Shown one piece after another: positions 3,052 to 57,555 of a stretch of 64,000 nt of DNA (positions are counted from its first letter, which is position 1; each line of letters starts with the position of its first letter). This DNA comes from Eubacteriales bacterium. Its GTDB lineage: Bacteria; Bacillota; Clostridia; Oscillospirales; CAG-382. The stretch spans positions 17,868-81,867 of the forward strand of contig JAQWDK010000004.1 of assembly GCA_028705495.1 (NCBI GenBank), written 5' to 3'. The notes under the pieces were generated by a model, which worked only from the letters and a program-made list of their open reading frames with translations, did not search any database and was not told the DNA's origin. The position numbers and the translations under genes were made by a program.

Positions 3052-4302
3052 TTGAATCAAATGACAAGCTCCGCCGGAGCAAGCTCAGCATCGGTGTTAA
3101 CCGTTTCTCAGATAAACGGGATGATAAAAAAGCATGTTGAAAGCTCACCGTATCTAAAATCCGTCTATATTAAAGGCGAGATATCGAACCTTACGGTTCA
3201 CACAAGCGGACATTATTATTTTTCTCTCAAAGATTCTGGCTCAGTTTTGAAATGCATAATGTTCAGAGCGGCGGCAACAAAGCTTGTTTTCGCACCTGAA
3301 AACGGACTTAATGTAATTTGCCGCGGAAGAATATCTGTTTACGAACAGGGCGGTTATTATCAGCTTACTGTCGAGGCGATGAAGCCGGATGGTGTTGGAG
3401 AGCTGTATATTGCCTTTGAACAGCTGAAAAAGAAGCTGAATGCTGAAGGGCTTTTCGACAGAAAATATAAAAAGCCACTACCAAAAACGCCATATCGTGT
3501 CGGCATTGTAACCTCTCCGACCGGTGCTGCGGTGAGGGATATCATAAAAATCAGTCGCAGACGCTTTCCGCCTGCAAAACTTCTTCTCTATCCCGCTCTT
3601 GTTCAGGGTGAGGGAGCGGCCGCCAGCGTAATACGCGGTATTGAATATTTTAACCGTACCGATTCCGCGGATGTTGTTATAATTGGTAGGGGCGGAGGTT
3701 CAATAGAGGACTTATGGGCATTTAATGACGAAAATTTAGCGAGAGCAATTTTTCGTTCAGCGATCCCAATAGTATCGGCTGTCGGTCATGAAACAGACTT
3801 TACAATTTCCGATTTTGTTGCCGATGTTAGAGCCGCAACCCCTTCAGATGCAGCACAGCTCTGTTTACCTGAGATAGAAACATGTCATACAAGACTGACG
3901 AATGTAGCCCGGAGACTGTGCGACTCGCAGCTTTCTAACATATCCGAAAGGCGTTCTGCACTTGCGCTGCTTAAAAACAGCAAGCCTCTTACATCACCTT
4001 TTAACACTATTAATGACAGAAGAACGAAACTTGTAGATCTTGAGAGCAGTCTTTTCTCGGCGATACATTATTCTCTTGAAAGAAAAACAACTTCAGCCGA
4101 ACACATTGGTGAAAAACTCGCTCTGCTTGATCCGTTTTCGCCGCTCAAACGAGGATATGCTATTGCATTCGGGAAAGACGGTGCGGTTACAAGGGTCGGC
4201 TCTCTTGAAACAGGCGATGAGCTTAAGCTCAAATTCGCCGACGGTGAAGTAGATACAAGGATCACCGCTGTAAGAAAAGAAAGGCAAGAATCAAATGAGT
4301 AA
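3052..4302 (+). CDS. xseA: Exodeoxyribonuclease VII large subunit
   Basis: 416 aa. Motifs VGIVTSPTGAAVRDI and GRGGGSIEDLWAFNDE. The start is TTG 3052 or ATG 3061. An 8-nt overlap with xseB. Confidence 0.9.
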   Translation: MNQMTSSAGASSASVLTVSQINGMIKKHVESSPYLKSVYIKGEISNLTVHTSGHYYFSLKDSGSVLKCIMFRAAATKLVFAPENGLNVICRGRISVYEQGGYYQLTVEAMKPDGVGELYIAFEQLKKKLNAEGLFDRKYKKPLPKTPYRVGIVTSPTGAAVRDIIKISRRRFPPAKLLLYPALVQGEGAAASVIRGIEYFNRTDSADVVIIGRGGGSIEDLWAFNDENLARAIFRSAIPIVSAVGHETDFTISDFVADVRAATPSDAAQLCLPEIETCHTRLTNVARRLCDSQLSNISERRSALALLKNSKPLTSPFNTINDRRTKLVDLESSLFSAIHYSLERKTTSAEHIGEKLALLDPFSPLKRGYAIAFGKDGAVTRVGSLETGDELKLKFADGEVDTRITAVRKERQESNE

Positions 4303-4535: not shown

Positions 4536-5453
4536 TTGAATGATCATTATAAAAATCTTGAGGAGCGCATCAATACGCTTTCTGAAGTGACAAAAAAAGA
4601 AATAGAAATTGTATCCAGGTCAAAAATCGGTGAAACATATTATAAAACGCTAATTGACTCGATGAATTATACCTTAGACGCCGGCGGTAAGATGATACGC
4701 TCGTTTCTTGTGTATGAATTTTGCTCCGCTTCTGAGGAAAGCGACACCCATTCTGAAGGTTGTGAAAAATACGCAGCGGCTGTGGAAATGATGCATAGCT
4801 TTTCGCTCATACATGACGATTTGCCTTGTATGGATAATGCTTCTCTACGTCGTGGAAAGACGACTAACCACCTCGTTTTCGGTGAAGCGACAGCGCTTCT
4901 TGCGGGTGATGCACTCGCAATTCTTGCTCTTCACACCTGCGCTTCTAACAGACTCTACTCTCCGAAACAAAACTGCGAAGCCGTGGAATGCCTTAGCCAT
5001 TATGCAGGCAGGGATGGTATGATCGGTGGTCAACAGCTTGACCTTGAAGGCGAAAAAAGTCTTTTGTCGAAAGAACAGCTCGACCTTATGAACAGCATGA
5101 AAACTGGCTCTCTAATGGCAGCTTCTTGTGAGCTCGGCTGTATTGCAGGTATGGCAAGGACAGCGAGAAGAGTCGGTGCAAAGGGATATGGATTCCTTCT
5201 CGGACGTGCATTCCAAGTAACTGACGATATCCTCGATATAGAAAGTAGTCCAGAGCTTCTTGGAAAAGATATTGGAGCTGATAGCGAAAATAATAAATCA
5301 ACTTATGTCACACTACTCGGGCTTGAAGGAGCAAGAGAGTTTGCAAAAGAGCTGACTGAAAGCGCAAAGAAATGCCTTGAAGCATTTCCAGACAGCCAGT
5401 CGAAGAGAAACCTACTGCTATTAGCGGATTATTTACTTGAGCGAAAAAAATAG
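4536..5453 (+). CDS. ispA: Farnesyl/geranyl diphosphate synthase (polyprenyl synthetase family)
   Basis: 305 aa. First and second Asp-rich motifs: FSLIHDDLPCMDNASLRRGK and FQVTDDILD. Confidence 0.9.
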   Translation: MNDHYKNLEERINTLSEVTKKEIEIVSRSKIGETYYKTLIDSMNYTLDAGGKMIRSFLVYEFCSASEESDTHSEGCEKYAAAVEMMHSFSLIHDDLPCMDNASLRRGKTTNHLVFGEATALLAGDALAILALHTCASNRLYSPKQNCEAVECLSHYAGRDGMIGGQQLDLEGEKSLLSKEQLDLMNSMKTGSLMAASCELGCIAGMARTARRVGAKGYGFLLGRAFQVTDDILDIESSPELLGKDIGADSENNKSTYVTLLGLEGAREFAKELTESAKKCLEAFPDSQSKRNLLLLADYLLERKK

Positions 5454-5485: not shown

Positions 5486-5489
5486 AAAA

Positions 5490-6075
5490 TGATAAGAACT
5501 ATTAATGGCGCAGTATCCTAGTTGGACCGTCGTTCCCGAAAGCGGGCCTAAAAATCCGCGTAAGGGCAAAACGATGAAGCTCCTTGTGCTTGCTTTAGAC
5601 GCCCAGTTTAGGGTGGGTGCTGGGAGAATGGACTGCGGGCGCCCCGTAATGGCATACGGGACACGACCCGTTTTCCGTAGAGGCTTTTTTCTGTGCTGGC
5701 ACGGTTTTTTTCGTAGCTGGTACGGTTAAAAGATTAAACCTATCACGCGGTACTTTTTGTTGCTGTGGATAGAGTAGCCTGACTTGAGTGGTTTTGGCGG
5801 ATGGGTGTTCACACCGGTGTAGTAAGTCGACGACGATGCTGGTTATCGCTCCCTGAAACCTCTGCTGCAAAAGAGTCTAAGGAACGGAAGCGGTCTATTG
5901 AGGAAATCTCCTAGGCTGAGATATCAGGCACAGGATGGATTGCAGTGTGAACTAAAAGGTAATCAAGTCCCGGCTCCGGTGACGGACCGGCTGTTGGTTT
6001 AAAGGGAAACCACTTTATCGGCGACGAAAAGTACTGACTGGGGAAAGCCTACTTGACCGGATGTCACAAAGTTTA
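5490..6075 (+). ncRNA. ole: OLE (ornate, large, extremophilic) RNA candidate; the ends are approximate
   Basis: A 667-nt gap (5454-6120) in an otherwise tightly packed operon. It holds only short overlapping ORFs on both strands with implausible products. It is locally GC-rich with many short helices (e.g. CCGGCTCCG-gtga-CGGACCGG at about 5970-5990) and has its own promoter. The flanking order nusB-xseA-xseB-ispA-[gap]-small TM protein-dxs-tlyA-nadK-argR-recN is the published OLE/oapA neighbourhood. No covariance model was run. Confidence 0.75.
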
Positions 6076-6120
6076 CGTCTTGTGCCGCCATTCATATTTT
6101 TATATAAAGGAAAAGAAAAA

Positions 6121-53197: not shown

Positions 53198-53228
53198 ACG
53201 CCGAACCCATATTAAAAGGGCTCGGCGT
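53198..53228. terminator. Bidirectional terminator at the core/island boundary
   Basis: ACGCCGAACCC-n9-GGGCTCGGCGT. Confidence 0.6.
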
Positions 53229-53239
53229 AAATTGTTCGA

Positions 53240-53815
53240 TTAATCATGAATTGTAATAAAATTTTTCAATGCGGTTGTAATGTCGTCTTGTGCAACCAAC
53301 AAAATTTCACAGTTCTCAAGCTCTTGAATACTGAACTTATCAATTTCATCGTTGCATACTAAAATAGCCGCTCTGTTAACGATTTCAGCGTTCATGTACT
53401 CGTTGAATTCTTGAATATCTCTATTGACCGCCTCTTCGACTCTTATATAACCTTCATCTTCAATTACTTCGGCTGTCCAAGCATTTATTTCTTTATCGTA
53501 AAACATTAAGTAATCTAATATAAGAAAATTTTTATAAAAGAAATAACCATAACCGTTTAAGCGAACTTCCTTGCGTCTGATATATTCGATTGGTAAGTCA
53601 GCCTTCATGATCGAGTCATACATACGAATATAGTATGATGAGGTTGACATCCATGTGTATTTTTCTTTTGTATCTTTGTAATACTTTGTAATGCGGTATC
53701 TGATGAAATCAATCGGCGTATATAGGAAAACTCCAATTATTATCAAAATTAAAAATGGTATAAAAAGAACTACTAAAATAACTTTACCGAATTTAACTAA
53801 CTTTTCTTTAATCAA
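53240..53815 (-). CDS. Orphan single-pass membrane protein (191 aa)
   Basis: TTG 53815 lies 5 nt after AAAGGCGGTGA and gives MIKEKLVKFGKVILVVLFIPFLILIIIGVFLY. Tyr/Glu-rich soluble C-terminal domain. Low GC. Confidence 0.5.
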   Translation of the reverse strand: MIKEKLVKFGKVILVVLFIPFLILIIIGVFLYTPIDFIRYRITKYYKDTKEKYTWMSTSSYYIRMYDSIMKADLPIEYIRRKEVRLNGYGYFFYKNFLILDYLMFYDKEINAWTAEVIEDEGYIRVEEAVNRDIQEFNEYMNAEIVNRAAILVCNDEIDKFSIQELENCEILLVAQDDITTALKNFITIHD

Positions 53816-53867
53816 TATCACCGCCTTTGAAAGAATTATAAATTGTAAGATAAAAAGAAGCAATACA

Positions 53868-54437
53868 CTATTCTGTTATTTCTTCAATTATATAAAGCAA
53901 ATTGCTATATTCATAATACTTAAACCTATAATACGAACCTTTCTTTAGATTTACATCTAATTGAAAAACATAATATGTGTTCGTATTGTTTATAAATTTT
54001 ACCTTAGGTCTGGTTCCATCAATCTCCGGAATATAAATTTCAACGATTCCAGTAATATAAACATCTTCTGCATAATAATCTTTAAACGCACTTTCTACTC
54101 TCTGATATGAACCAATTGCCATCATACAAAAGAGAAGCAATACAACCAATCTCTGTAGTATTGTTTTTGTTAAGTTTATGCTTGGTTTTTTTATTATTGC
54201 TAATATAAAATCAATTATAAAACTGATTACAATAGCAACCGCAAAAGATAGCAAAATCATAAAAAATCTTATATCGCCACAAAGAACTCTCGTATCCAAG
54301 TCGCTCGAATACGAGGGCAAAATCATTACAGCTAAAAATATTATCAGAGGAATAGTGATTATTAATACTCCTAACACAACTTCTTTTTTGGTAACTTGCT
54401 TTTTAGGAGGATAATAAGAAATATCATAATCGTTCAT
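53868..54437 (-). CDS. Orphan 3-TM membrane protein (189 aa)
   Basis: Three hydrophobic helices, then a beta-rich Tyr-rich C-terminal domain. A 4-nt gap to the next gene. Low GC. Confidence 0.5.
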   Translation of the reverse strand: MNDYDISYYPPKKQVTKKEVVLGVLIITIPLIIFLAVMILPSYSSDLDTRVLCGDIRFFMILLSFAVAIVISFIIDFILAIIKKPSINLTKTILQRLVVLLLFCMMAIGSYQRVESAFKDYYAEDVYITGIVEIYIPEIDGTRPKVKFINNTNTYYVFQLDVNLKKGSYYRFKYYEYSNLLYIIEEITE

Positions 54438-54825
54438 ATCATCAATTCCTTTTTTCTTGATTTATTGACTTAATTTTAGCATGCATTTATTTTCATGTCA
54501 ACGATTTATTAAAATATGCTTTGCGTAGCAAAGCTTTTGTTCTTTCTTGTTTTTTATTTTACGGGGACAAGTTAAATATCCGGCTTTCATTGGTGGTGAA
54601 GTAATCCACTAACATACGCAATCTCAATGATATATGGCTTAAGCTGCATGCTATAACATCCGTTCCTTCATATTCGAAGCGTATATCATATGTTCGGAGG
54701 GGATAGCTATTATAAGCTTTTTTGTGGTAAATCAGTAAATATTTCGTAAGTCCCATTTAACGGACACATAAAATAATATAATATAAACAGAGAGTAAATA
54801 TGGCGCTTGCGAAAGGGGTATATCG

Positions 54826-55350
54826 ATGTTAGATGGATTTAATGGTGGAGGATTTGACCCGAACGGCTCCATTGAAAGCAATGTGAATAATCATTATGTA
54901 TTTAGAGAAACAAGCAGCGGAAGCGGTGGTGGAGGTGGTGGTAAAAAAGGCGGATCAGGTAGCAGCGGAAATGGATGCTCCTATATTGTCTACGCTATCA
55001 TAGCTGCATATTTTATCCTAAGCAACCCCGAAGCAATAATTATGTTGCTTCTTCTATCAGCGACCATCGCGTTGGGTGTTTGGATTGTGCATAAGATATG
55101 GACTGATCTAAGCGGAAAACGATTAAACATTTATTTTAGAGGAGCTGCCAAGGTTGTCGCCGGGTATCTTTCTGCATTTGGATTTTTCGCAATTCTGATT
55201 GAAATAGATGATTTTTTAGACTGGAAAATTTTCTGGTCCATATCAGCGGATTGGGTTATAATCTTCAGTATTGTTTTATTAATAGTATTTGTTTATTTGA
55301 TCAAGCGGGGATTTGATAATAGAATTAATATAGCCGACAATAATGAGTAA
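54826..55350 (+). CDS. Orphan membrane protein with Gly-rich N-terminus (174 aa)
   Basis: RBS aaagggg. SSGSGGGGGGKKGGSGSSGNG, then ~4 TM helices. Confidence 0.5.
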   Translation: MLDGFNGGGFDPNGSIESNVNNHYVFRETSSGSGGGGGGKKGGSGSSGNGCSYIVYAIIAAYFILSNPEAIIMLLLLSATIALGVWIVHKIWTDLSGKRLNIYFRGAAKVVAGYLSAFGFFAILIEIDDFLDWKIFWSISADWVIIFSIVLLIVFVYLIKRGFDNRINIADNNE

Positions 55351-55385
55351 ACAAAATGCCACTACAGTGCATGGAAAAACAAAAC

Positions 55386-55408
55386 GCACCTTGCAAAAAG
55401 CAAAGTGC
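55386..55408. terminator. Hairpin between convergent orphan genes
   Basis: GCACCTTGC-aaaaa-GCAAAGTGC. Confidence 0.45.
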
Positions 55409-55502
55409 GAAATATTGCATTGTGTACGAGATGTAAAGAGAAGTTTGTCATTGACAAAAATCGATAGTCTTTATGTAAAGAGGTAATGAAAAAGGATGTA
55501 TG

Positions 55503-55760
55503 CTATTTGTTTTTATTTTGAATGATTTTAACACACCAGAAAAGCCATAAGACCATAAACCCAAATGAAATAATCCAACAAATAATTGCGCCTAAAATCC
55601 CCGTAGCATTTAATGCTGAAATACCGGCTAAGATTCCTATTGTAATTAATAGTCCACATAAAATTGACGTTATCATTAATCTAACTATTATTGGGACTTT
55701 TTTACTTTTTGTTGCACCTAAAAGCCCTTCAATAAATATTTCAAATATTATTCCCATCAA
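55503..55760 (-). CDS. Orphan small 3-TM membrane protein (85 aa)
   Basis: Almost entirely hydrophobic (ILCGLLITIGILAGISALNATGILGAIICWIISFGFMVLWLFW). Confidence 0.45.
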   Translation of the reverse strand: MMGIIFEIFIEGLLGATKSKKVPIIVRLMITSILCGLLITIGILAGISALNATGILGAIICWIISFGFMVLWLFWCVKIIQNKNK

Positions 55761-55977
55761 TAAATCTCTCCATGTATGTAGATAATTTATTTAAATAAGT
55801 ACTATCTTTTCTATCATTGCCTTTGCTTGAATAATATCACAAATACCTATATATTTCCATTATAATATTAAAAGACTATTGACATAAAGATGCCTGCAGA
55901 ATTTTTGATTGAAGACATGAACCTATCTCTAATTACAAAAATCTAATTGTTCTTTTTCGCCGTGTTGATTGAAGCGA

Positions 55978-56199
55978 TTAGCATAACTCTGCCTCTTTAA
56001 GTGCGATTTGAAGCTTCGCGATAAAATCGGCTTTGCTGTGAGAGTATTGTGCCTCGCGGATGTTCGCACCGATTGATGTGCCGCTTCTGCCGATCTGGTT
56101 AGAAGTGATTGATTCACGCTTTTCTTTGAGTTGTTTGACGAAGTTGATTACTGAAACCGCAAAATTCATTGATTGAGTACGAAGTTTTGAATTAGACAT
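55978..56199 (-). pseudogene. Four-helix-bundle protein (23S rRNA IVS-protein family), copy 1, truncated/deleted
   Basis: MSNSKLRTQSMNFAVSVINFVKQLKEKRESITSNQIGRSGTSIGANIREAQYSHSKADFIAKLQIALKEAELC*. The family core (QIGRS..SI.ANI.E ... ADF...L.I.LKE) is present. It stops ~50 codons early. Beyond the stop the same frame reads ...RKRTIRFL*, matching the C-terminus of copy 2 (STIRFLL), which implies an internal deletion. Confidence 0.65.
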
Positions 56200-56223: not shown

Positions 56224-56252
56224 ATTATACCATACACTTATGAGGTTTTCAA
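56224..56252 (-). promoter_or_regulatory. Sigma-A promoter of four-helix-bundle copy 1
   Basis: Minus strand: TTGAAA, 17-nt spacer, TGgTATAAT. The RBS GAGGTG follows. Confidence 0.65.
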
Positions 56253-56416
56253 TAGTGAAGTTGCGGCTTTGCCGCAGTGAAGTATTGTGGCTGCGCCGCA
56301 AAGTGAGGCTAAGTGTGCCACCCACGCCCGCAGGCACTTCACGAGGCGTAGCCTCGCTTCATGCGCGCAGCGCACTTCTCGTGCCAAAGGCACATCGCGT
56401 TACGATGTGCCTTTGC
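56253..56416. repeat. Mini-hairpin array 1 (7 short GC-rich hairpins with GTGAAG / CTTCAC linkers)
   Basis: TGCGGC-ttt-GCCGCA (56262-76), TTGTGGC-tgc-GCCGCAA (56285-301), GTGCC-n13-GGCAC (56315-37), CGAGGC-gta-GCCTCG (56342-56), TGCGC-gca-GCGCA (56362-74), GTGCC-aaa-GGCAC (56381-93), AAAGGCACATCG-cgtta-CGATGTGCCTTT (56386-414). Linkers are GTGAAGT on the left and CTTCA(C/T) on the right. Confidence 0.8.
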
Positions 56417-56422
56417 TGTGTT

Positions 56423-56467
56423 GTGACTACAATTTAGATGAAAAGCCGTGACACTACGATTTAGATG
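56423..56467. repeat. Tandem direct repeat GTGAC(AC)TAC(A/G)ATTTAGATG x2
   Basis: GTGACTACAATTTAGATG (56423-40), aaaagcc, GTGACACTACGATTTAGATG (56448-67). Confidence 0.7.
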
Positions 56468-56566
56468 CACGCTTTTTCTCGCGAGGGTACACGAACCCCT
56501 TGGCGATGATGGGTGTTGCGCTTGACCGTTGACCGACGGGGTATAAAGCCATGCTTGTAACGAAGT

Positions 56567-56806
56567 CTATGTATTATATACTGGCTTATACACCCAATGT
56601 GTATCTAAGTCTATTACATAATCCACCTTAACATGAGGATCAAAAGGAATCACTTCATAACCATAGCGCATACCAAAAGCGGAGGGAAACTCCTTTTCGC
56701 TAACAAGATTAAATATTTCTTTAGTTTTTTCTCGAAGTTCTGATTCTCCAATTCCTTTTCCATGCAGTAGTATATCGCCGTATACGGATTCTATGTAAAA
56801 TATCAC
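56567..56806 (-). CDS. 79-aa orphan protein coupled to four-helix-bundle copy 2
   Basis: The tracked ORF (56567-56887) overlaps the 3' end of copy 2 in another frame. GTG 56806 follows GGAAGGA and overlaps the copy-2 stop as GTGA. Product: MIFYIESVYGDILLHGKGIGESELREK... Confidence 0.45.
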   Translation of the reverse strand: MIFYIESVYGDILLHGKGIGESELREKTKEIFNLVSEKEFPSAFGMRYGYEVIPFDPHVKVDYVIDLDTHWVYKPVYNT

Positions 56807-57177
56807 TTTTTTCCTTCCGTCGCCGTATTGAGATTGTTTTTCGCTGTCGTAATAGACTTCACAAGTAAAAATCTTATTGTCGAGCACTTGCGGTCAAGTG
56901 TTTTATACCTCATTTCATCAATATACTCACTTTTCCAAAGCATTTCAAGCCATTTGCTCGTTTCGTTGGTCTCTTTCAATGAAATTTCAAGCTTTGCAAT
57001 AAAATCGGCGCGACCGTGAGCGTATTTACTTTCAGCAATATTTGCACAAATGCTTGTCGCGCTTCTGCCGATCTGATTTGATATTACATTTTCGTGATTT
57101 GCACGGAGTTCCTTTGTTAATTGTAAAACCTAAACAGATAATTCCATTGAAAGATCACCGAGCTTATCTTCTCTCAC
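56803..57177 (-). pseudogene. Four-helix-bundle protein (23S rRNA IVS-protein family), copy 2, full length but with an in-frame TAG
   Basis: GTG 57177 follows AAAGGTGGTGG. VREDKLGDLSMELSV*VLQLTKELRANHENVISNQIGRSATSICANIAESKYAHGRADFIAKLEISLKETNETSKWLEMLWKSEYIDEMRYKTLDRKCSTIRFLLVKSITTAKNN.... The TAG at 57130-57132 aligns with Ser in copy 1. Confidence 0.65.
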
Positions 57178-57230: not shown

Positions 57231-57446
57231 CTGCATTTCAGCGCACAAACTAACGGCTTCATTCCGTTTGCGCGAAGCGCAACATCATTGGGCGAAAACC
57301 CACATCATTTGCCGAAGGCAACTTCATTTACGGCAAAGCCGTAACATCGTTCATTTGTGCCGCGCGGGGCGGCAATGAAGTTGAGCTAACGCTCAAATGA
57401 TGTTGCGCGCGTTGCACGCAAATGATGTTGTGCCTACGGACACAAA
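57231..57446. repeat. Mini-hairpin array 2 (~9 short GC-rich TTG..CAA hairpins with CATCATT / AATGATG linkers)
   Basis: TTGCGC-gaa-GCGCAA (57268-82), TGGG-cgaaaa-CCCA (57289-302), TTGCC-gaa-GGCAA (57309-21), TTACGGC-aaa-GCCGTAA (57328-44), TTGtGCCGC-gcggg-GCGGCAA (57355-75), TTGAGC-taac-GCTCAA (57381-96), TTGCG-n9-CGCAA (57403-21), TTGTGCC-tac-GGaCACAA (57428-45). Linker polarity flips near 57365. Confidence 0.8.
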
Positions 57447-57479
57447 TGAAAAATCCGAAAGCGAGAGCTTTCGGATTTT
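57447..57479 (-). terminator. Terminator of tRNA-Gln
   Basis: Minus strand: AAAAATCCGAAAGC-tctc-GCTTTCGGATTTTT. Confidence 0.85.
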
Positions 57480-57555
57480 TGGCAGGGGTGGATGGACTCG
57501 AACCATCGGAATGCAAGAGTCAAAGTCTTGTGCCTTACCACTTGGCTACACCCCT
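57480..57555 (-). tRNA. tRNA-Gln (anticodon UUG)
   Basis: Minus strand: AGGGGTG TA GCCAAGTGGTAAGGC A CAAGA-CTTTGAC-TCTTG ... GATGG-TTCGAGT-CCATC CACCCCT G CCA. Confidence 0.9.

Follow-up and report, generated by a model that had tools for sequence, protein, structure and literature searches.

Gut-1-type hairpin arrays upstream of genes for standalone Avd-like four-helix-bundle proteins in Clostridia

Introduction

What is a chain of short hairpins doing between a tRNA gene and the gene for a four-helix-bundle protein? The question is raised by a stretch of 64,000 nucleotides from an Eubacteriales bacterium (GenBank assembly GCA_028705495.1, contig JAQWDK010000004.1), which we call the window. 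At 57241-57480, the window carries about ten short GC-rich hairpins with CWTCATT linkers between them, followed by the reverse complement of the same linker. An earlier note had described this chain from the sequence and held that its element class could not be named. That point can be revised: Rfam family RF01706 (Gut-1) has the same design and matches related loci above its threshold. By its sequence, we take the window element to be a divergent variant of this known, uncharacterised motif class, although it fails the formal Rfam threshold. We find that the arrays are tied to the gene of an Avd-like protein of the PF05635 family, and we discuss the possible function of this pair.

Architecture of the array

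The mini-hairpins can be read directly from the sequence of the forward strand, and the last hairpin, H0, is given by a terminator scan.

57253-57267 (+): hairpin ACGG/CCGT
57268-57282 (+): hairpin TTGCGC-GAA-GCGCAA
57289-57302 (+): hairpin TGGG..CCCA
57309-57321 (+): hairpin TTGCC-GAA-GGCAA
57328-57344 (+): hairpin TTACGGC-AAA-GCCGTAA
57350-57379 (+): central hairpin GCCGC..GCGGC, framed by TTCATT/AATGAA
57381-57396 (+): hairpin TTGAGC..GCTCAA
57403-57421 (+): hairpin TTGCGCGC..GCACGCAA, one mismatch
57428-57445 (+): hairpin TTGTGCC..GACACAA, one mismatch
57449-57480: H0, 14-bp hairpin with a symmetric A-run and T-run, the first conserved unit of the module

The units are 15-27 nt long, with a typical period of about 21 bp. 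Exact copies of CWTCATT stand at 57257, 57283, 57303 and 57322 on the plus strand and at 57374, 57396 and 57421 on the minus strand, and degenerate copies at 57349 (GTTCATT) and 57445 (AATGAAA). The 64-kb window holds 26 exact matches, and seven of them thus fall inside 171 nt, where about 0.07 would be expected. No other part of the window is as dense in perfect mini-hairpins as the array region, which folds better than 200 of 200 shuffled sequences on both strands (z -4.96 and -3.73). The hairpin chain with constant linkers is therefore real, as the earlier note had it.

The gene lies on the minus strand. On this strand the order is tRNA-Gln, H0, three mini-hairpins, the centre, four mini-hairpins, a closing hairpin, the promoter and the PF05635 gene, and the array divides into the following parts.

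57381-57448 (-): tRNA-proximal half-array, 'L-type', three hairpins with CATCAT/CTTCAT after each; it includes S1 (~57438-57450, -), the 5' partner of a long-range helix
57348-57380 (-): centre, the GCCGC/GCGGC hairpin and S3 (GGCACAAATGAACG on the gene strand, 57348-57361), which is complementary to S1
57268-57347 (-): gene-proximal half-array, 'R-type', four hairpins with ATGATG/ATGAAG between them
57241-57273 (-): closing hairpin GCGCAAAC..GTTTGTGCGC with an inner ACGG/CCGT stem, taken from the fold

The closing hairpin overlaps the last mini-hairpin, which means that alternative pairings exist, and it is kept in related loci as GCGCAAACGGAAT..CCGTT..GTGCGC. The A6 and T6 runs of H0 are symmetric; by sequence, H0 would be a bidirectional intrinsic terminator, and no convergent gene is present.

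Three other readings of this anatomy were rejected. By sequence reading, the linkers resemble the start of an extended -10 element (TGTGATAT..) and lack a usable hexamer, so that we do not take them as promoter elements. Open reading frames (ORFs) that span the array are artefacts, because the unit lengths are not multiples of three. A 'ladder' fold, in which CATCAT linkers pair with ATGATG linkers, is drawn by RNAfold for the minus strand of the window; it is not general, because the unit numbers of the half-arrays differ widely between loci (L036, L025, L033; the loci are introduced below).

Conservation in related loci

A protein scan with one genome per species found 271 relatives, of which the best 80 (78-97% identical) were used as loci L001-L080. 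These come from uncultured Clostridia (Oscillospiraceae, Acutalibacteraceae and others). More than 60 Clostridia genomes carry the same array architecture in front of a PF05635/TIGR02436 gene with 78-97% identity, and the module precedes the gene in essentially all of the 80 loci, termed type 1, that have upstream sequence present. The earlier note had proposed a search of relatives for the linker 12-mer. Of the 80 loci, 60 contain the exact 12-mer in their arrays, and it occurs at no other place in these loci. Uniqueness to a single locus, which the note had said would refute its reading, is thereby clearly false.

Between H0 and the centre, 59 of 62 loci have a stretch of 125-135 nt, and the unit number of the gene-proximal half-array varies from 1 to more than 7. 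Long expansions of the ATGATG type, with at least 7-15 copies, are seen in L033 (1-290 and 676-727), L035 and L042 (3985-4080), some of them downstream of the gene; the expansion of L035 is broken by a run of N.

Conservation was measured as mean pairwise identity by region.

Third codon positions of the four-helix-bundle gene: 0.56
First and second codon positions of the gene: 0.88
Three linkers: 0.86-0.93
S1 (CATTTGTG after H0): 0.97
S3 (GGCACAAATGAACG, centre): 0.91
Hairpin interiors: 0.43-0.72

Linkers, S1 and S3 are about as conserved as the first and second codon positions, and the hairpin interiors change at about the pace of the third. H0 itself combines a freely evolving stem core (identity 0.52) with conserved A/T runs (0.93), and it is kept as AAAAAATCC..GGATTTTTT beside unrelated tRNAs. 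At four homologous positions, perfect stems average 13.0, 6.4, 5.9 and 4.4 bp, and chimeras of arms from different loci reach 3.8, 3.0, 3.1 and 2.1 bp. RNAalifold reports 14 sequences with double compensatory changes in hairpin H2. These comparisons show that the linkers are under purifying selection and that the stems are constrained in structure only. The formula of 'variable palindromes, constant linkers' put forward in the earlier note, with stems that vary while their pairing is kept and linkers that are conserved in sequence, is quantitatively correct.

The array is stable within species. The same arrangement is found in 69 of 69 population contigs, which differ by single-nucleotide polymorphisms only, and population hypervariability of the kind seen in CRISPR was not seen in these contigs.

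Polarity, strand bias and long-range helix

A switch of polarity near 57365, by which the array would consist of two opposed half-arrays, had also been proposed, and it is real: linkers and loops both flip. About 80% of the loops read G-N(N)-A (GCA, GAA, GTCA, GCAA and others) on the strand that reads CATCAT, and the other half of the array carries their reverse complements. The loop polarity thus flips with the linkers, and therefore the units are truly inverted and not merely palindromic.

The stems do not favour either strand. Among 2621 stem pairs, we count 2574 Watson-Crick pairs, 23 G·T and 24 A·C, and the stems do not look selected in one RNA strand only. Wobble pairs are uninformative for assigning the strand, because G·T and A·C are equally rare. 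The earlier description of covarying stems holds as far as the pairing is kept; by the same counts, covariation alone is no proof of an RNA.

S1 (TTCATTTGTGCCGC, the first 10-15 nt after H0) is the reverse complement of S3 in the centre. Of 55 loci, 38 show this complementarity over 13 nt or more and 53 over 10 nt or more. Its variants covary (TGTGCC, TGTGTCC, TATGTCC, and TTTGTTTG with CAAACAAA), and RNAalifold favours the S1:S3 helix over the local first hairpin. The first half-array thus lies inside a long-range helix or inverted repeat, and an enclosure of the same type is found in the second protein clade described below. An invertible, phase-variable segment between S1 and S3 was considered and rejected, as one orientation is seen in 69 of 69 population contigs and 64 of 64 type-1 loci.

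Kinship with Gut-1

Gut-1 was described from human-gut sequences and, given its covariation, classed as certainly an RNA (Weinberg et al., 2010; PMC2864571). The published motif consists of three hairpins; the opposed half, the tRNA junction and the protein are unmentioned there (PMC2864571). The RF01706 consensus reads CAaUGAAAU-hairpin-GUGAAAU-hairpin-GUGAAAU-hairpin-GUGAAAU, and its curated gathering threshold is 50 bits. Against this model, the first array of the window scores 22.0 bits (E 0.17, 57277-57352, -), and a second array, at ~56250-56415, which is absent from the earlier note, scores 34.1 bits (E 1.5e-4, 56331-56402, -), both below the threshold. Type-1 arrays of other loci give 27-29 bits or no match. 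A match to a catalogued family, which the earlier note had held would speak against its reading, thus exists in part: the family matches both window arrays, without reaching the threshold in either.

The design is nevertheless shared. In both cases, at least three consecutive short hairpins with variable stems are joined by a constant 7-nt linker, the hairpins are GC-rich and in tandem, the stem sequence is free, and the loops are of the UUC type. Unit hairpins such as TGCTTCGCA are common to arrays of the window type and of the Gut-1 type. The linkers differ in sequence, being GUGAAAU/GUGAUAU in Gut-1 and AUGAUG/CAUCAU or GUGAAG/CUUCAC in the window, and the first window array has its halves in the order opposite to that of Gut-1. 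Locus L025 (4930-4990) holds a hybrid array that mixes GTGAAAT and ATGATG linkers, and L012 (5230-5400) holds a third linker type (TATATCATCA / TGATGATATA).

The setting is shared as well. The Gut-1 seed sequence BAAZ01025322 has tRNA-Arg, a terminator and the array, and the window has tRNA-Gln, a terminator, the array and the PF05635 gene. The flanks of the Gut-1 seed alignment already show the 3' end of a tRNA, a terminator, the motif and inverted AAUAUCAC units. By a metagenome scan, we recovered the seed locus in dozens of human-gut assemblies. Its full order is tRNA-Arg, H0, four GTGATAT units, the centre, four ATATCAC units, the promoter and a four-helix-bundle gene, such that the opposed half-array and the PF05635 gene follow here, too. 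Three more species have this order; there it follows tRNA-Gly, tRNA-Gln or, in L170, a partial tRNA 3' end that ARAGORN does not call. In L062, RF01706 matches with 57.7 bits directly after tRNA-Gln, a second match of 40 bits lies on the opposite strand, and the Gut-1 array is followed by a PF05635 gene of the second clade.

Link to the Avd-like protein

The link to the array also holds in a second clade of proteins, type 2. An array before the PF05635 gene is present in five independent type-2 species, including the original Gut-1 seed locus. In type-1 loci, CATCAT linkers precede ATGATG linkers in the order L-centre-R (64 of 64), and in the five type-2 species GTGATAT linkers precede ATATCAC linkers in the order R-centre-L. 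We show that the linkage of the array to the four-helix-bundle gene is obligatory in type-1 and type-2 loci, and that the linker motif and the order of the half-arrays covary with the protein clade.

Intact homologues of the protein score 95-112 bits with TIGR02436 (cut-off 24). The family matches the PDB entry 2RLD (E 1.4e-23) and, weakly, 2GSC (E 0.059), and each of these is deposited with five chains. It is a very large family, with thousands of relatives found in one search. According to a review, 2GSC and Avd are structural homologues (PMC10053308). In the diversity-generating retroelement (DGR) of a Bordetella phage, cryo-EM shows that the Avd pentamer grips an 11-bp stem-loop with all five protomers in contact, and flipped-out bases sit in the crevices between protomers; stem-loops of this type are predicted in 207 of 278 DGRs (bioRxiv 10.1101/2023.10.23.563531). 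The protein and its cargo do not belong to a catalogued defence system as far as PADLOC is concerned, in which neither has a match.

Genes and second module in the window

The context given in the earlier note, with tRNA-Gln at 57480-57555 (-), a terminator-like hairpin at 57449-57480 and a PF05635 gene downstream (-), is confirmed. The window carries two modules in tandem, both on the minus strand.

57480-57555 (-): tRNA-Gln(UUG), by ARAGORN; Rfam tRNA model 65 bits
57202-57230 (-): putative promoter of the four-helix-bundle gene, TTGGTT, 17 nt, TGATATAAT (extended -10), by sequence reading
56803-57177 (-): four-helix-bundle gene 1 (Avd-like; PF05635/TIGR02436), Pfam E 2.4e-20
56567-56806 (-): cargo ORF of 79 aa, whose GTG start overlaps the stop codon of the four-helix-bundle gene
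56416-56573 (-): 3' element 'RE-B' (TACATAG..CCCATCATCGCCAAGGG..CAC), between the cargo ORF and the next module
~56250-56415 (-): second hairpin array, linkers GTGAAG/CTTCAC, half-arrays in reversed order
56224-56252 (-): second promoter, TTGAAA, 17 nt, TATAAT with TG
55978-56199 (-): second four-helix-bundle gene, truncated, 73 aa

The first module begins right behind the encoded CCA of tRNA-Gln. A promoter-like site is found at the matching relative position in 54 of 72 related loci. Gene 1 has an in-frame TAG at 57130-57132 and is probably a pseudogene. The two genes score 73.2 and 57.2 bits with PF05635 (cut-off 33.8), and, judged by their sequences, both copies of this genome are decaying. 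The second array opens with a 13-bp hairpin (56385-56415) and folds with z -4.19 and -4.76. For the 79-aa cargo ORF, a homologue lies at the equivalent position in L005, and no match was found in Pfam, NCBIfam or PADLOC.

Beside the cassettes, at 53200-55800, the window contains an AT-rich block (31-34% GC vs ~42%) with small orphan ORFs for membrane proteins, which have no Pfam match. Far from the array, at 5489-6107 (+), lies a full-length OLE (ornate large extremophilic) RNA with 442 bits, which assigns the organism to the anaerobic Firmicutes.

Cassette context

In related loci, the left boundary of the module is sharp. In 27 of the 43 loci checked, the module starts exactly where a tRNA ends with CCA, and 11 anticodon types are represented; the tRNAs at the junction are Trp, Gln (twice), Met, Ser, Arg (three times), Tyr, His, Cys and Gly, and behind many of these different tRNAs CCA runs straight into AAAAA. 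In the other loci, the module starts after a conserved element that ends in ..CAC or in a tRNA-like ..CCA.

At the right boundary, seven loci carry a direct repeat of the last 15-61 nt before the junction at the far end of the cassette, at the following positions.

L002: ~4820-4942
L008: ~4950-5063
L045: ~2060-2180 and ~3230-3350
L061: 5180
L048: 4375
L077: 4317
L018: 2197

What is repeated is either a tRNA end of ~21 nt, running from the T-loop of the target tRNA through its CCA, or 44-61 nt of the sequence in front of the module, and in three loci the far-end repeat comes after a conserved hairpin GACAGTCC-n3-GGACTGTC. This pattern looks like the signature of an insertion or of an attachment site.

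Between these boundaries, the gene downstream of the four-helix-bundle gene is extremely variable, with 50 families in 66 loci. They include two GNAT families, an AAA_15/AAA_21 ATPase, a WapI-like immunity protein and small membrane proteins. The start of the downstream gene overlaps the four-helix-bundle stop (ATGA) in 24 loci. RE-B is present at the equivalent position in 15 of the 80 loci; instances are the window (56416-56573, -), L001 (4748-4909), L004, L007, L008, L012, L013, L018-L022 and L031. It is ~160-190 nt long and follows the cargo ORF directly, with the initial TACATAG supplying the stop codon. It contains CCCATCATCGCCAAGGG and two covarying direct repeats of ~14 nt, shows partial covariation with some compensatory pairs, and ends in ..CAC just before the next H0. 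No Rfam family matches RE-B, which may be another new structured element belonging to this system. If the cassettes form a system of their own, as proposed below, the variable gene would be bounded by exact junctions on both sides, the ATGA at the four-helix-bundle stop and the TACATAG at RE-B.

Tandem modules occur in the window, L062 and L022. After the last cassette of L008 (5100-5230) and L018 (2285-2430), bare heptads without hairpins are found, with TTCACTC about five times and then inverted AGTGAAT two to four times, and a second terminator follows.

We looked for signs of a mobile element. No recurrent integrase, transposase or reverse transcriptase (RT) was found within 4 kb in the 80 loci or near the window locus. 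An origin in phages or plasmids was rejected, as blastn gave no match in phage and plasmid collections and none in viral contigs. For the window locus, the search for an empty site recovered none: the exact PRPP synthase of the window has no database record, and relatives at 83-84% identity lose synteny and have no tRNA-Gln downstream. The only contig with a 99% identical PRPP synthase, L167 (3615 nt), ends 96 nt after the gene, which is ~30 nt short of the start position of tRNA-Gln in the window. Taken together, these facts suggest a cassette-like system, possibly a mobile one.

Comparison with known systems

The nearest parallel to the pair of array and protein is the Avd stem-loop of DGRs. 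In both, an Avd-family protein, pentameric in the DGRs, stands beside GC-rich stem-loops with a free stem sequence, and recognition would use bases outside the helix. In contrast to a DGR, however, there is no RT, template repeat (TR) or variable repeat nearby, the window has many hairpins of 4-8 bp instead of one of 9-11 bp, and its array lies upstream of a promoter whereas the DGR stem-loop lies inside the avd-TR-Sp transcript. Neither a recurrent cluster of RT-like ORFs in the 80 loci nor a Pfam RT near the window locus was found. The PF05635 proteins encoded in intervening sequences (IVS) of 23S rRNA are another case of this family in a stable-RNA transcription unit with conserved complementary sequences. 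There, one stem brackets the gene; in the window, the complementary segments instead form arrays upstream of it, and the gene comes after tRNA genes with a promoter of its own.

The heptads of the omega repressor and the iterons of plasmids resemble the array in their constant 6-7-bp elements, which are stacked in both orientations upstream of a promoter. In the window, by contrast, the heptads are separated by hairpins of conserved structure, and the neighbour protein is neither a ribbon-helix-helix nor a Rep protein. Integrons share the apparent recognition by structure, the variable accessory genes downstream and the tandem cassettes; yet attC is one imperfect hairpin at the 3' end of a promoterless cassette and works with IntI, while the window module has a multi-hairpin array 5' of the gene, its own promoter and no recurring integrase. 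The earlier note was right to set the array apart from REP/BIME, attC and the ends of IS200/IS605. Within 64 kb the units are confined to two arrays, with no dispersed copies, the 80 loci contain no RAYT-like gene and no IntI, and no tnpA or tnpB is found in the 80 loci or near the window locus. A CRISPR array, with constant repeats of 23-50 nt, unique non-palindromic spacers and cas genes, does not fit, as the constant part here is 6-7 nt and the variable parts are palindromes of 9-19 nt and stable within species. Nor do type III toxin-antitoxin systems, with their identical tandem repeats of about 36 nt, as the units differ, the orientation switches, and a terminator precedes and a promoter follows the array.

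Proposed mechanism and alternatives

On the analogy with Avd, we propose that the array is a multivalent docking platform for the adjoining pentameric Avd-like protein, which would read both hairpin shape and linker sequence; we put the probability of this proposal at roughly 0.4. The array would be the cis-acting nucleic-acid part of a module, and the protein encoded immediately downstream its second part. Each unit would offer a short hairpin, whose stem need only pair, and then a linker of 6-7 nt that is read by sequence. The units are arranged in two opposed half-arrays of ~4-5 linkers each, the first enclosed by the 10-15-nt S1:S3 helix. The pentamer would recognise hairpin shape and linker bases as Avd does with its DGR stem-loop. 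On binding, a nucleoprotein complex would form where the cassette starts, and this complex would feed back on the expression of the protein and the coupled variable gene or would mark the cassette for exchange. The ligand might be RNA, arising by read-through or antisense transcription, or single-stranded DNA. We prefer this mechanism because the Avd pentamer grips a stem-loop and takes up flipped-out bases between its protomers; that the protein binds the array, in which nucleic-acid form and with what regulatory outcome are inferred. The ~4-5 linkers of each half-array would fit a pentamer; this is numerology and only suggestive.

The form of the ligand can be approached from several signals. 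The symmetric H0, as in bidirectional terminators, points to RNA, and so does the judgement of Rfam on Gut-1. An antisense promoter-like site, TTGTTA-17-GATAAT, is present in the 5' coding region (57114-57142, +) and in 36 of 72 related loci; a transcript from this site would cover the ribosome-binding site of the gene, the promoter and the array, and would end at H0. The missing G·U signature, the C-GNA-G loops and the hairpin-less heptad arrays speak against RNA of one strand, and d(C-GNA-G) loops form exceptionally stable mini-hairpins in DNA.

Several observations weigh against the docking proposal as a whole or in part. The half-arrays stand in opposite orders in the two protein clades, which any single-strand model must accommodate. 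The mini-hairpins, at 4-8 bp, are shorter than the 9-11-bp stem-loops bound by Avd. The stems lack the excess of G·T that RNA structures of a single strand typically show. With a terminator on one side and a promoter on the other, the array has no evident primary transcript, and the antisense site, located in conserved coding sequence, may be fortuitous. In the window, both four-helix-bundle genes are defective while the arrays are intact, and L012 and L025 have arrays or remnants without an adjoining gene of this family.

The location of the array just upstream of a conserved promoter and outside an obvious transcript would also suit an operator or iteron array in duplex DNA, in which the 6-7-bp linkers are sites for a regulator, the four-helix-bundle protein or another factor, and the palindromes set spacing or bending. 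Linkers in both orientations, stems that are equally Watson-Crick on both strands, the bare heptads of L008 and L018 and the period of about 21 bp agree with it. Spacing, however, gives no reason why complementarity is kept through many compensatory changes, and the polar G-N(N)-A loops are left unexplained; units of 15-27 nt do not keep helical phasing, and proteins of this four-helix-bundle family are not known to bind double-stranded DNA sequence-specifically. We regard the operator as doubtful. The array, H0 and tRNA 3' end might instead be the arm region of an att site, at which a recombinase or retro-element enzyme encoded elsewhere inserts or exchanges cassettes and the hairpins fold in single-stranded DNA like attC. 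This would account for the boundary exactly after the CCA of many different tRNAs, the far-end repeats, the tandem modules, cargo as variable as that of integron cassettes and the one-strand loops of the d(C-GNA-G) type. It has to be set against the lack of a recurrent integrase, transposase or RT in the searched neighbourhoods, the absence of the element from the searched phage, plasmid and viral collections, the single arrangement in all 69 population contigs and the failure to recover an empty site, so that we consider a recombination site unlikely.

Rfam annotates Gut-1 as a free-standing RNA, and a small RNA, for example a sponge for a factor that recognises the AUGAUG or GUGAUAU linkers, would agree with the published classification by covariation, with the significant fold scores and with an architecture like that of multi-hairpin sponge RNAs. 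Yet no promoter lies before the array, the strong terminator precedes it rather than follows, the G·U signature is missing, and the strict linkage to, and covariation with, one protein family argues against independence; we find this quite unlikely. Stacks of REP-like hairpins stabilise upstream RNA, and an array directly after a tRNA terminator could in the same way be a passive element that makes termination behind the tRNA more efficient, keeps exonucleases out or protects the cassette promoter from read-through. This reading, which leaves linker and S1/S3 identities of 0.86-0.97, the opposed halves, the S1:S3 helix and the covariation with the protein clade unexplained, is very unlikely. 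Least probable of all is a non-functional by-product, in which slippage or template switching would multiply short palindromes within a silent spacer. Quasi-palindrome correction would be expected to leave just such perfect palindromes that favour neither strand, and the unit copy number does expand in L033, L035 and L042. A neutral origin is nevertheless unlikely, because the linkers are conserved while the drifting hairpin interiors stay complementary; the linkers and S1/S3 are far above the conservation of synonymous sites, and the first half is fixed in length and architecture in more than 55 species-level genomes.

Significance

Gut-1 has stood in Rfam since 2010 as an RNA from human-gut metagenomes only, without context or function, and our searches of the literature on PF05635, TIGR02436 and Gut-1 yielded no work on the function of the array or of family members that stand alone. 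The known role of the four-helix-bundle family is confined to diversity-generating retroelements. What is new here is that the Gut-1 motif is one half of a larger symmetric element, with sequence variants missed by the Rfam model, and that arrays of this type are tied to, and covary with, a standalone Avd-like four-helix-bundle protein, often just after a tRNA. A further-reaching proposal, also doubtful in our view, is that Gut-1-type arrays and Avd-like proteins form an unrecognised class of cassettes linked to tRNA 3' ends in Clostridia and integron-like in function. The pentamer would bind single-stranded hairpins and linkers, the complex would drive capture, exchange or controlled expression of the variable gene, and an enzyme encoded elsewhere, possibly an RT, would move it. 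Two orphan entities, the array and the protein, become testable together, and they may belong to a cassette system in abundant gut Clostridia that carries GNAT, ATPase, immunity-like and uncharacterised small genes.

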